Assembly: GCF_033153115.1 (NCBI RefSeq)
Contig: NW_026889795.1
Coordinates: 9,982,001-10,046,000 of the forward strand
Source: Saccostrea echinata
Taxonomy: Eukaryota
Reading direction: 5' to 3'
DNA length: 64,000 nt
The translations under genes were made by a program, and so were the position numbers. Under the pieces are notes generated by a model. The model saw only the letters and a list, made by a program, of their open reading frames with translations, was not told the DNA's origin and made no database searches. Positions 18,034-27,329 of this stretch are shown here, one piece after another. The stretch's first letter is position 1. Every line of letters starts with the position of its first letter.

Positions 18034-18168
18034 AGTAGGGAAAAAACCAGGGTTCTGGACCAGTGTCCTCCCATAGAGTTACTATGGAGGATCCTCCTGG
18101 TATCCTCCCAGCGTGTGAGGATACCCATGACGTCATCTAATGAATTTAATTAACAAATTAATTATGAA
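18034..18168 (+). repeat. Polinton left TIR
   Basis: Reverse complement of 27195-27329 with 2 mismatches in 135 bp; weaker similarity extends about 20 bp further. Confidence 0.95.
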
Positions 18169-18830
18169 ATATTAATTAAAATTAATTATATTTTGATTAT
18201 TAATTACATAATTTTTGAAACGATATGATTCTGTCATGTGTAGTCGGAGTGTCAATTAAATTAATTATATAATTATACACACTAGTAATCTCAAAATGTT
18301 TCAAACGCATTCGATTCTAACACAGATTCAATTCAACTAACTTTAGAGTAACTTTCAAAGAGTTAAGGCTTTTATGACATTATGTAACCATTTTCATTAA
18401 TGATATTATTTTTCCAAAAAGAATCATTTGAATTAGTCTCCCTATATCATAGAGTAGCCAACAAAGGTGTTATAGATAGTCCTCGCCAACAAAGGTGTTA
18501 TAGATAGTCCTCGCTTACAACAATAATTGATTCAAACACAATCGGGAGTTGCACTAACAAAATTTGAATCAGTGACAAGAGACAACATTTATTTTTTAAT
18601 TAGATTTTTATTTTCCCCGTTACAATTATGAAGCATGGGTTGGAGAGCCATCCCATGTCCATTTTACAATGACCTACAGCCTAGTCTATAATGTACAATA
18701 CATTTATTTACACTATGAGAGTCGTCTACCATCCATCATATCATACTGAAGCGATCTGTGTTTATGTACGCTCTTTCTGAAAAGATGGAATCTGATGTTT
18801 GACCTGTCCAGGGTAGTGCACTCTCCTATA

Positions 18831-19937
18831 TCATAGATTTGAAACATCAGACGCCTTGATCCAAGAATTAAATTTCTTTGGATAATAAAACCATTTGACG
18901 AAATATTGTTTGTTATTCCCCTTTCCTCTAGTCTTTAATATTTTTTCAACTTTCCATAGATCATCGTCTTTCACATCCACTCTTTGAAGTTCTGATTGAT
19001 AAAAAGATCCTTTGATTTCATCTCCGTCAAAATCCTCTACTCTGTAGACAGGTAAACCACCACGTAAAATCCTCTGAGAAATGATAAATATTTCACCCGT
19101 CCACCTTTCGTCATATTCGAGAGAAAATGGATTCCTGAGATGGGTAAGTCGAACGTGGTCACCGATTTTAAATCTAAAAGGTTTTCTTACAGTCTTCGTC
19201 TTTTTAATAACTGTGTGATCCTTTGGCCAATACATTTTCCACCACACAGCTGTTTCATTTCCACTGTTGACAATTTTAGGAGTCATACCGATAGTTCGGT
19301 GATATGTGCTATTGTAGCTTTTGACAAAAGTTTGAAGTTTTTCAATATATGCATACGACTTTTGGTAAGTAATAAAACGATATATCCTTGTCTTCATGGT
19401 TTTGATGACCCGCTCGGCAATTGCTGCTTTGGTTTCATTCTGAGCATAAAGATGTTGAACATCATGATCTTTGAAGAGTCTCTGAACTTCCTTCGCTCGA
19501 AATTCCTGTCCTTTATCTGTTCGTATTCTTTTAGGTACTCTATCCTCCTTGAAAATGTCCTCTAAAGCAATGGCTACTGTAACCCCCTTTTTGTTTTCCA
19601 AAGGACGCATCCACAGGTACTTTGATAGAACATCGATCACGACCAGTACATACATGAATCCTTCGTTGTACTTGGCAAACTTGGCCATATCCATGAGATC
19701 TGCAGACCACTGGTCATCAATACCCGTCACCATTATTTTGTTTCGTTGAAAACGTCTCCGTAGTGGTCTTTGTAAGCTGTAAGCTTCTTGTTTTTGCAAC
19801 CATTTCCTAATTTTGTATTTGCTAATTACATATTTACCGTCTTTTCTCACATACCGGAATAATTTGTCTGGTCCCAGAAAACTACCAGCATTATTTGGAT
19901 TGTAATAAATGTCACGTAAATAGTTCTCCCAAGACAT
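18831..19937 (-). CDS. Retroviral-like (rve) DDE integrase with C-terminal chromodomain, Polinton type
   Basis: 368 aa. QWSADLMDM (D), RIRTDKGQEF (D), AIAERVIKT (E), YNSTYHRTIGMTP, FKIGDHVRL; chromodomain WKVEKILKTR...QYFVKW...FNSWI. Confidence 0.95.
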   Translation of the reverse strand: MSWENYLRDIYYNPNNAGSFLGPDKLFRYVRKDGKYVISKYKIRKWLQKQEAYSLQRPLRRRFQRNKIMVTGIDDQWSADLMDMAKFAKYNEGFMYVLVVIDVLSKYLWMRPLENKKGVTVAIALEDIFKEDRVPKRIRTDKGQEFRAKEVQRLFKDHDVQHLYAQNETKAAIAERVIKTMKTRIYRFITYQKSYAYIEKLQTFVKSYNSTYHRTIGMTPKIVNSGNETAVWWKMYWPKDHTVIKKTKTVRKPFRFKIGDHVRLTHLRNPFSLEYDERWTGEIFIISQRILRGGLPVYRVEDFDGDEIKGSFYQSELQRVDVKDDDLWKVEKILKTRGKGNNKQYFVKWFYYPKKFNSWIKASDVSNL

Positions 19938-20007
19938 GTTTCCTCGTCAATCTCCAGCGGTAAAATGAAATAAAAGTTATATATTACATAAATTTATGGA
20001 GGACAAT

Positions 20008-21642
20008 TTATTCACCATTTTCATCCTCGGTTTCATCTTCAGAATCTGTGTCATCATCTTCATCATCTGTTTGTTCATCGTCTGTTAAATACATCATCTC
20101 CTCAAGGAGATGTTTGTACTTCCTGAGAGCCATACGAACAGCCGGTAAGTTTTCATATCCCTTTTTAAGGAACTTTTCAATACTATTCATTATTTTTCCG
20201 TGGATCTGTCCACCTTTCAAGTCTAAAATGTCCAGAATAGTTCTTCCATATAGGTCTAAAAATGCAATAAAATTGGTTTCCTGCATTTTGTTATTTGCTT
20301 TATTTTCTGCTTCCATTTTAGACAATCCCTCTTTTCGATATTTTTTGAACTTTTCATACCACGTATCCTCATTTTTAACCTTTGATCTTTTTTTCATTCT
20401 TTTGAAGTAGTCTTCTTCTGTTGATGCATTAGGAGAATCATCGTCATAGTCCATTGCGTATTCATCTGACTGAAAGATATGCTGCTTCTTTTTAAGTGGT
20501 TCCTCATAATCATCCAGAGGGAGTTGTCGTTTACGATTATCATTTTCCGGGCACCATCTCTTGACATGTTGTTGGAGGTCATGCGTACTATCAAATACGA
20601 GTCCACAATCATCACAAGATGCCATCATAGAACGCAAAGATGTATCAGTGGATTCAAAAGTTTGACTCTTTACTTCACCAGAGCTATTTAGATGCGTCCT
20701 TTCTTCTTCGGAAAATCTTTGCAAATGACTTGTTGTTTCTGGTTTGTGTTCTTTTATAGGCATGTCTGTGAAAATTTCAGTGCGCATGCGCATTGATTCA
20801 GGCGTTGTCGGTTTTAAATCTATTAAAAGATATCCAAAGGGTTTTTCTGTTGCTTCTTTGAAATGCCTCATCAATTGTTGGGTATTTCCAGGATACATCT
20901 GTCGAGCCAATGTCATCACTTGTTGTTTGTCTATTGGATTTTTAAAAAGAACGAGATAATGACAGTTTCGTCTTTGGGTTGGATCTTTGTTGTAGAACAA
21001 GTTTTGGTTAATAGCGATGACTGAAAGGTTTCTATGATGGCTTCCTTCAGTAAACAATTCATTGATCCGGGAATCCTTGGAGGTGCTTGACATCATATCA
21101 TCTAAAATCAACACATTTCTTTTTTGAGGATTTAAAAAAGAATCCTCTTCCAAATCCATTGGTATTCCTCGAATGAATTCCACGCTGGGGAAAACCGTGT
21201 CCTTTATGACGTCATACAAAGGTTGCCACCGTTTATAAAGCCAAATTATCCGTTCTGGCGGGGGAGCAATTTTGGTTAGACAGTTTTGTAATAGTAATTT
21301 GACAAAGTATGTTTTTCCACATGAGGTTGGTCCCGATACGTTTGCAGTAAATGGATGCTTGAATTGAAAAATCTGCTGCTGCTGCTTAAGATGTGTTTCC
21401 TGGTATTGTTTCTTTGAAGCGTCATTTATCTTTTGTTGCGTTAAAAAGGTTTCTTCTTGCAGTTGATTGTTTAAAGTGCTGTATAACTCTTGCTGCTGCT
21501 GCTGGGTTAACATTGTATATTCCTGCTGTTGGTTGAAACTTACGGTATATCCTTTATCTTTCCTCGGGTGTTTCAGTTTCAAGTGACGCTGTAAATCATG
21601 AGGCCACACGTAAGTTTTGGGGCAGAATTTACATTGATTCAT
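20008..21642 (-). CDS. Polinton packaging-type (A32/FtsK-HerA-like) ATPase with N- and C-terminal zinc fingers and an acidic tail
   Basis: 544 aa. Walker A HPFTANVSGPTSCGKT, Walker B LILDDMM, LFTEGSHHRNLSV, NCHYLVLFKNPID, KPFGYLLID. C2H2 finger CKFC..HLKLKH, polyQ tracts, second finger CDDC..HVKRWC. Confidence 0.9.
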   Translation of the reverse strand: MNQCKFCPKTYVWPHDLQRHLKLKHPRKDKGYTVSFNQQQEYTMLTQQQQQELYSTLNNQLQEETFLTQQKINDASKKQYQETHLKQQQQIFQFKHPFTANVSGPTSCGKTYFVKLLLQNCLTKIAPPPERIIWLYKRWQPLYDVIKDTVFPSVEFIRGIPMDLEEDSFLNPQKRNVLILDDMMSSTSKDSRINELFTEGSHHRNLSVIAINQNLFYNKDPTQRRNCHYLVLFKNPIDKQQVMTLARQMYPGNTQQLMRHFKEATEKPFGYLLIDLKPTTPESMRMRTEIFTDMPIKEHKPETTSHLQRFSEEERTHLNSSGEVKSQTFESTDTSLRSMMASCDDCGLVFDSTHDLQQHVKRWCPENDNRKRQLPLDDYEEPLKKKQHIFQSDEYAMDYDDDSPNASTEEDYFKRMKKRSKVKNEDTWYEKFKKYRKEGLSKMEAENKANNKMQETNFIAFLDLYGRTILDILDLKGGQIHGKIMNSIEKFLKKGYENLPAVRMALRKYKHLLEEMMYLTDDEQTDDEDDDTDSEDETEDENGE

Positions 21643-26230: not shown

Positions 26231-26990
26231 ATTTAAAAAAAATGTTAACCCCAAAACTGATTTGATGCATTAGATGGTAATGACCGCTTCCGCGAGAAGA
26301 CGCTTTTCCGGTGTCTCGCTTGAATTCTCTTGCTTCACGTTGCTATATACAGGGGTCATGGATAAGCGTGTATGTTTCTTTTGTGTGACACACATTTTAT
26401 GAATATTAAGGACAATCATGAATAAAACTTTGTAACTTTAATTTGGATTAACCTTTTGACCGGTATGCCATATCAAACTTATGAAATTTATGTCGAAAAC
26501 TATTGACACATTGCTCATTTTACTTTTCATTTTCATTTTACTTTTCATTTATTGTCAATTTGTCACTGTTTTAAAATGATTGAAATGTTGTTAAGGGTTA
26601 AAGATCCGCTGTGAGGATTCTTGATCATTATAAAGTTCAAGTTCTGACACTGATGCAAACAGCTAGATAGTTTTACAAATAAAATGTCAAAATAAGCACG
26701 TTTAAAAAAACCAATATGGCGTCTAATTTTTGATTTTAAACCAGTTTAATCTTGTCTATAATGCTTGTCGTGACATGTTTACCTGTATTCTATAAATAGA
26801 AGTGGCGTTATTAACCAATACAACACACATTGCGTTCACCTGTGTTTCGCTTGACTGCAACTTGATCAAAACAATAAAATAAATGCATCGACCTTTTCTA
26901 ATGTTTTGTTTAGTTTGATGTAAAATCCATATTACACAGCGACATTTTGATAAATTTCAATTTACCTCAAATACCCAAGTGATAAGAGGT

Positions 26991-27116
26991 CACAGTCAAG
27001 GTGGAGTCTACAGTCAGGGGGTAGTTCACAGTCAAGGTGGAGTCTACAGTCAGGGGGTAGTTCACAGCTAAGGTGGAGTCTACAGTCGGGGGGGGGGGGG
27101 GTAGTCCACAGTCAAG
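26991..27116. repeat. Subterminal 36-bp (two 18-bp subunit) G-rich tandem repeat in the Polinton
   Basis: CACAGTCAAGGTGGAGTCTACAGTCAGGGGGTAGTT about 3 times. A separate 28-bp direct repeat GCCAACAAAGGTGTTATAGATAGTCCTC x2 lies near the other end (about 18457-18513). Confidence 0.85.
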
Positions 27117-27194
27117 AGGGGATATATGTATTTACTAATAATTGACACTTGTTTAACTTTTAATTGATGATTCATAATTAATTTTTTAATTAAA

Positions 27195-27329
27195 TTCATA
27201 ATTAATTTGTTAATTAAATTCATTAGATGACGTCATGGGTATCCTCACACGCTGGGAGGATACCAGGAGGATCCTCCATAGTAACTCTATGGGAAGACAC
27301 TGGTCCAGAACCCTGGTTTTTCCCCTACT
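27195..27329 (-). repeat. Polinton right TIR
   Basis: Inverted copy of 18034-18168. Confidence 0.95.

Follow-up and report, generated by a model that had tools for sequence, protein, structure and literature searches.

A 64,000-nucleotide stretch of the Saccostrea echinata genome (contig NW_026889795.1, positions 9,982,001 to 10,046,000 of the forward strand, hereafter the window) contains at 18034..27329 a cleanly bounded, capsid-less Polinton that keeps a packaging-family ATPase next to a protein-primed DNA polymerase (pPolB) and an integrase. The element belongs to the Polinton/Maverick group and not to the capsid-encoding polintoviruses. The likeliest reading, to which we give an even chance, is that a mollusc-type Polinton lineage without capsid genes, built on the pPolB-ATPase-integrase block, left here a young copy that is now probably inactive; a propagating lineage of this reduced kind is preferred slightly to a one-off deletion.

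Both ends of the 9,296-bp element are present. The left terminal inverted repeat (TIR; 18034..18168), which starts with AGTAG, shows AG at a 3-nt period and includes TGACGTCA, could be aligned without gaps over its 135 bp to the right TIR (27195..27329, also 135 bp), with two mismatches at positions 8 and 35 (98.5% identity), and the termini of the element are AG..CT. The hexamer TATTAA was found on either flank (18028..18033 and 27330..27335), an agreement expected for random 6-mers with a probability of about 7e-4. These TIRs and this 6-bp target-site duplication lie within the ranges published for Polinton/Maverick elements (100-1500 bp and 5-8 bp, respectively). The three genes follow each other on the minus strand in the order pPolB (25436-21706), ATPase (21642-20008) and integrase (19937-18831), separated by spacers of 63 and 70 nt, with about 0.66 kb of non-coding DNA at the 3' side of the block and about 1.76 kb at its 5' side, in which the largest frame reaches 70 aa from stop to stop and 68 aa when started by ATG. 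A first-pass annotation of this DNA had described a bounded 9.3-kb element with the same TIR length, termini and duplication, three co-oriented genes with these spacers, and some 0.66 and 1.75 kb of leftover space without any open reading frame (ORF) above 70 aa, and all of these values were obtained again on remeasurement; its proposal of a genuine single integration agrees with the matching TATTAA copies and the intact TIRs. The ends (TIRs and duplication) are intact, as it had described them, but the coding content is not, unless through an assembly error, as the frame of pPolB is broken, which had been overlooked. No further copy of the element and no additional TIR were detected across the window.

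The absence of virion genes was assayed with sequences from a related contig, L001, the source of the major capsid protein (MCP)-like and adenain genes used in the remnant searches. The MCP identity of the former, unnamed by Pfam, is our assumption from the look of the gene. As Pfam missed this positive-control MCP, it was dropped as a capsid detector and a profile was built from 103 homologs, with which 120 non-coding segments were scored. No MCP remnant was detected in these segments (top score 0.8 bits), whereas 153 of 154 held-out natural fragments of 40 aa and 192 of 210 of 30 aa scored higher than every segment of the window. Neither an ORF long enough for a double-jelly-roll major capsid gene nor a profile remnant of one was found in the element. 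There was no adenain ORF either; the L001 protease gave in tblastn, as a single-sequence remnant test, a best E of 0.37 outside the element, and the adenain C5 family of Pfam, found in the control, gave no match in 64 segments. No PC4 remnant was detected in the non-coding parts of the element, and an intact, unspliced penton gene is absent judging by ORF size, because no free ORF exceeds 70 aa. A tblastn search of the non-coding parts with 548 proteins produced 10 matches with E values of 0.002-0.04 per query, compatible with chance. The earlier statement that the element has no capsid or protease gene is thus borne out by the lack of ORFs and of matches in the non-coding parts, and the decayed MCP or protease remnants for which a search had been proposed there were not found (MCP by a profile with its control, protease by single sequences).

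The polymerase is encoded in two frames on the minus strand that overlap in a break zone at 23937..23964. The first (23937..25436) comprises two C2H2 fingers, a terminal-protein domain with LF/PAD fold (aa 109-231), a vOTU protease domain with its Cys/His motifs (aa 241-357) and the ExoI motif, and the second (21706..23964) contains an endonuclease-VII insert, ExoII/III and the PolA/B/C motifs. In a structure model of the N-terminus (mean pLDDT 80.6), matches were found to the terminal-protein fold (Z 8.8, root-mean-square deviation 3.2, 113 aligned residues) and to the OTU fold (Z 8.1, deviation 3.8, 103 aligned); these Z values are middling, with top rows that belonged consistently to both families. 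Such an architecture of the pPolB N-terminus has been described, and the vOTU domain was proposed to release the terminal protein (10.1101/2024.03.18.585575). The Exo and Pol motifs, together with these predicted folds, identify the protein as a protein-primed family B polymerase. PF03175 of Pfam did not match it, and no match was obtained among phage records. The nearest named homologs of both pPolB (8000 homologs scored) and the ATPase are from bivalves.

The frame break is missing in the relatives P0284, P0286 and P0290, the first two being single-frame proteins 83-89% identical to the window copy. A programmed frameshift was ruled out, as these close relatives lie in one frame. All three relatives compared likewise lack two short in-frame gaps that the window copy has close to its C-terminus (residues ~669-679). 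The second frame departs from 3 of 186 conserved columns, against a median of 1.6% among 84 relatives, and the first from 1 of 30. Because the polymerase is split while such similar relatives are unbroken, the window copy is probably inactive, unless the break is an assembly error; and given the near identity of its TIRs and the lack of substitution-level decay, its sequence reads as that of a young copy, either recently disabled or carrying such an error.

In contrast to the polymerase, the ATPase (20008..21642, minus strand; A32/FtsK-type, 544 aa) has an open frame, with its Walker A and B motifs in place and none of 64 conserved columns changed. It consists of a C2H2 finger, a Q-rich linker, a P-loop domain (~92-290), a second C2H2 finger, a helical domain (409-519) and an acidic tail. 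Its homologs match Pox_A32 of Pfam, and its structure model had three matches at E<=0.001 in BFVD, one P-loop NTPase and two packaging (A32) ATPases; the Foldseek search of the PDB gave nothing at that threshold, only weak rows for STIV B204. No match was found among phage records, the C-terminus matched only zinc-finger look-alikes in the Atlas, and longer fused forms were absent from the 4079 candidates scored, which is weak evidence. Compared to the ATPase of contig L002, the proportion of nonsynonymous differences (pN) was 0.10 and that of synonymous ones (pS) 0.78, the latter saturated. In six Mya arenaria gene models, this ATPase family is fused straight to an integrase in the same order as in the window. 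A C-terminal chromodomain-like segment was present in 8 of the 13 members of one related ATPase cluster, and a related family with its own terminal chromodomain (P0068, P0485, P0487, P0489-P0493 and P0495) constitutes a natural ATPase-chromo fusion. In P0087, a single frame encodes ATPase, zinc finger and adenain protease. The third gene of the block, the integrase (18831..19937, minus strand, 368 aa), is also open and of retroviral-like type, with the D-D-E motifs, an rve domain (Pfam E 3.7e-13) and a C-terminal chromodomain (Chromo, E 5.8e-8).

The remaining sequence suggests an expression of eukaryotic style. Upstream of pPolB, sequence motifs predict a TATA box (26189) with a short leader exon that is non-coding (both within 26134..26189), followed by a predicted intron (25451..26133), all on the minus strand, with a GTAAGT donor and a pyrimidine-rich CAG acceptor whose end lies 15 nt before the pPolB ATG. 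This donor, the only strict GTAAGT of the element, sits 55 nt downstream of the TATA box, whereas none of eight such donors in the flanks had a TATA box, and in pyrimidine richness the acceptor exceeds every one of 163 background YAG sites. These motifs support well the earlier assignment of the 5' space to a putative intron and promoter. The promoter, leader exon and intron would supply pPolB, and its transcript would probably end at an AATAAA that overlaps the ATPase stop, because no AATAAA follows pPolB itself. For the ATPase, an alternative acceptor at 21666, of moderate quality (top 10%), or an internal promoter could serve. The integrase has a TATA-like box of its own at 19983 and a polyadenylation signal, through which it may be expressed; since no YAG acceptor lies within 60 nt of it, a shared leader spliced onto all three genes is unsupported. 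A true polycistronic operon was also dropped in favour of splicing plus internal promoters, as the motifs would suggest. The 3' non-coding region (18169..18830, minus strand) has AATAAA at 18708, 18612 and 18593 and a perfect 2x28-bp repeat at 18457-18512.

Further features were detected at the 5' side. A GC/CpG-rich island inside the predicted intron (25580..25786, minus strand) holds the 68-aa ORF, for which no homology was detected and nothing was found in the Atlas, and a second such island lies at 26240-26340 in the AT-rich 5' region; they may represent an enhancer, an extra exon or a gene remnant. A TATA-like motif on the plus strand (26791..26797) points toward the right TIR and is followed by no gene, a possible orphan promoter judging from its sequence, and about three copies of a subterminal 36-bp tandem repeat occupy 26987..27094. 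Rfam gave no matches, and the 19 non-coding frames tested against PHROGs gave one weak match to an unknown family (E 0.0037; 24 queries).

The spacing of the block was compared with mollusc Polintons in 122 PolB1 rows of 12 assemblies, sampled from the 2,598 mollusc rows of Table S3 of Jeong 2023. The sample excludes PolB2 rows, duplicate RefSeq assemblies, five high-copy assemblies with differing layouts and a few rows of four others, covers one assembly in part, and was counted for rows with an integrase score of at least 400 (n=67). Going by their accessions, these rows are presumably mostly from oysters, scallops and mussels. The integrase was located 1.6-2.5 kb downstream of pPolB in 34 of the 67 rows, 18 of them in the 1.5-2.1 kb class (7 assemblies) and 16 at 2.1-2.5 kb (8 assemblies), with 9 others farther downstream and 24 upstream. 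The distance in the window is 1,763 nt, and the nearest rows have 1,816-1,923 nt; judged by coordinates only, the spacing of these mollusc elements, as in the window, leaves room for a single ATPase, whether or not a small gene accompanies it. The architectures could not be told apart by the TIR_filter column (True in 19/34 vs. 19/24, p 0.09). In the five high-copy assemblies, tens to hundreds of PolB1 copies were listed with a weak-scoring integrase adjacent, 1-2 kb upstream or ~7 kb downstream of pPolB, which represent further compact layouts.

In a tree of 47 ATPase rows selected from the matches, three members of the window's clade (support 99/90) come from contigs of 10,833, 10,845 and 10,847 nt, which suggests that these contigs are element-sized, and both capsid- or protease-linked ATPases (L001 and P0087) fall outside this clade. 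A single clade of all ATPase-then-integrase rows was not the best tree, yet was not rejected (approximately unbiased test, p-AU 0.19). Six of the 13 members of the ATPase cluster are on contigs equal in nt to those of the nearest polymerase cluster, among the 15 of 23 polymerase members listed, and one length, 6,366, is common to P0286, a close polymerase, and P0274, a close ATPase fragment. Among the accessions listed for named bivalve genomes, no adjacent ATPase/polymerase pair was present. Contigs L001 (1-3800), L002 (1-1097) and L003 are animal-type Polinton DNA in bacterial metagenome-assembled genome records, apparently as host contamination.

Polintons and Mavericks (polintoviruses, adintoviruses) share with the window element the TP-vOTU-Exo-Pol polymerase, an rve integrase with chromodomain, an A32-type ATPase, TIRs and a 6-bp duplication. 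The window element differs from them in the lack of MCP, penton and adenain genes, in its size of 9.3 kb compared to the typical 13-25 kb (Jeong 2023) and in an ATPase enlarged to 544 aa by two zinc fingers and a helical domain. Capsid-less Polintons are well established (PMC4405056). In the survey of Krupovic 2014 (PMC4028283), from which elements below 10 kb were excluded, nine elements had lost MCP, protease and ATPase together, and 2 of the 72 in its Table S1 kept the ATPase without capsid or protease genes. By tabulated gene content, P_Pd1.1 of the annelid Platynereis dumerilii (10,777 bp) and P_Gi1.2 of Glomus (11,019 bp) have, as in the window, kept the ATPase and lost MCP, penton and protease. 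The capsid-less Polintons of Trichomonas vaginalis and Entamoeba and the zebrafish N1 derivatives show a similar loss of virion genes and a transposon lifestyle, but, as they are described, the ATPase was lost too, whereas that of the window is intact. The proposal of a distinct class of self-synthesizing transposon is therefore too strong, as capsid-less Polintons are established and ATPase-only ones tabulated. No description of a 9-kb, three-gene mollusc Polinton family was found in full-text searches of the literature, although older Polinton papers, Repbase or bioRxiv supplements may hold some. Transpovirons and linear plasmids derive from the same lineage, likewise lack capsids and replicate by means of a terminal protein. 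Transpovirons carry pPolB-helicase fusions and rely on giant viruses, and we know of no case in either group where an rve integrase is combined with an A32 ATPase.

The reduced-lineage reading is favoured by the lack of any MCP remnant and by conserved ATPase and polymerase columns that are nearly unaltered, and also by the terminal-protein and OTU folds of pPolB, the content of P_Pd1.1 and P_Gi1.2, the ~10.8-kb contigs and the ATPase-integrase models of Mya arenaria. The placement of both capsid- or protease-linked ATPases outside the window's clade speaks for it too, as does the non-rejection of one clade for the ATPase-then-integrase rows. Several results weigh against it. A recent, clean deletion would likewise leave a conserved ATPase and no remnant, and an element of 10.8 kb has room for all capsid genes, as the 10,272-bp Polinton-6_NVi illustrates (Krupovic 2014 Table S1). 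Table S3 lists nothing but coordinates, so that the size of the gap is what suggests an ATPase there, and it does not record capsid genes beyond the block; the data on the relatives show neither element ends nor capsid content, so that they may have a capsid arm outside the block. The ATPase-then-integrase rows require two changes on the best tree, an ATPase with the same fingers and helical domain stands directly behind MCP and adenain in L001, and the family is fused to adenain in P0087. L002, which belongs to the window's clade, has PC4 instead of pPolB upstream of the ATPase, thus the exact three-gene layout is not universal. Finally, a single copy was seen, with a broken polymerase, and a further three-gene element whose ends could be mapped was not found.

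The strongest alternative, somewhat short of an even chance, is a one-off or few-copy, non-autonomous internal deletion of a full Polinton. The capsid module would have occupied an arm of its own, in the most plausible case somewhere between the promoter of pPolB and the right TIR, with the ATPase as a passenger, an integrase of its own or from a helper, and a copy now decaying, in which case the element is an ordinary defective Polinton. The split polymerase would fit this history, as would the outward-facing orphan TATA at 26791 and the GC-rich islands of the same 5' region; capsid linkage of the ATPase family in L001 and P0087 points in the same direction. Moreover, Table S1 of Krupovic 2014 includes N-type derivatives without capsid genes, and among the Mavericks of vertebrates 96% of the copies are defective (PMC8097293). 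The tidy layout had been taken as a sign that the element evolved as such and was not deleted, but the pPolB-integrase block is conserved in any case and common among mollusc rows, and a capsid arm lying apart could be lost cleanly without touching it, so the layout is no argument against deletion. On the other side, remnants of MCP, protease and PC4 were not found at any junction, an annelid element of equal content and relatives on ~10.8-kb contigs exist, and the capsid-linked ATPases are outside the window's clade.

If the element does represent a reduced lineage, the established biology of Polintons would suggest that replication of a linear copy proceeds from its TIR ends, primed by the terminal-protein domain of the polymerase itself, and that this protein is released by the polymerase's own vOTU domain, so that adenain could have become dispensable after capsid loss. 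The chromodomain integrase would then insert the copy and generate the 6-bp duplication. The ATPase would most likely have been kept for loading the genome into capsids of co-resident full Polintons, or for a second DNA-handling role.

The first of these roles would define, within the reduced lineage, a satellite with autonomous replication and integration whose own ATPase packages its genome into the capsids of co-resident full Polintons, a reading that the first-pass annotation had also offered and which we consider unlikely on present evidence. The ATPase is intact and constrained (as judged by its pN against saturated pS), although this constraint relative to L002 may predate capsid loss; its architecture equals that of the capsid-linked ATPase of L001, and its structural matches are packaging ATPases of the A32 type. 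Helpers would be plentiful, as 58.5% of 107,631 viral regions of bivalve genomes were assigned to Orthopolintovirales (10.1101/2025.04.19.649669), but none with this TIR was seen within the 64-kb window. A wider version, also doubtful, is that of widespread mollusc and annelid Polintons of 9-11 kb that have shed both capsid proteins and the protease, keep the enlarged ATPase under selection and hijack the capsids of full Polintons.

The second role, also a variant of the reduced lineage and still less probable, is that of an ATPase re-tasked in a pure transposon, where the fingers, the helical domain and, in one family, the chromodomain would let it bind DNA or chromatin and so assist replication or integration. 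Its position within the replication-integration block and next to PC4 in L002 agrees with this role, as does the chromodomain-like segment in most members of the related cluster; however, such an architecture is not confined to elements that lost their capsids, because the capsid-linked L001 ATPase has the same fingers and helical domain. Lastly, the collapse of a longer element to 9.3 kb during assembly is very improbable, since there is no N in the element (the only N run of the window is 47164-47297), no long internal repeat on which to collapse and only short, orderly spacers, even if the frame break of pPolB could be a consensus error.

In the accepted picture, Polintons that turn into pure transposons lose capsid, protease and ATPase together. 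If the reduced lineage is real, an ATPase-only lineage would be a defined intermediate between virus and transposon, implying that animal polintoviruses are parasitised by satellites or else that an A32 ATPase has a job other than packaging; a satellite lineage would have been overlooked because surveys dropped elements below 10 kb or demanded capsid genes.

Other features were detected in the window outside the element. A DDE_Tnp_4 transposase fragment (48475-48840, plus strand) and a convergent Myb/SANT gene (51528-52136, minus strand) form a two-gene PIF/Harbinger signature, for which no clear TIR was found. A 255-aa open frame at 6164-6931 (plus strand), without a Pfam match, is probably a host exon. 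Two tandem arrays at 12330-12871 and 13659-14282, one of 55-bp units that each carry a motif like a splice donor and one of 52 bp, are possibly repeated micro-exons of a host gene. A foldback-like array at 633-1280 has 171-bp inverted arms made of ~41-bp repeats, and inverted-repeat elements resembling miniature inverted-repeat transposable elements, with arms of 49-109 bp, lie at 35838-36230, 40381-40743 and 53045-54205. An exon of a host rhodopsin-family G-protein-coupled receptor was identified at 32000-32947 (plus strand; 7tm_1, E 8.9e-34).

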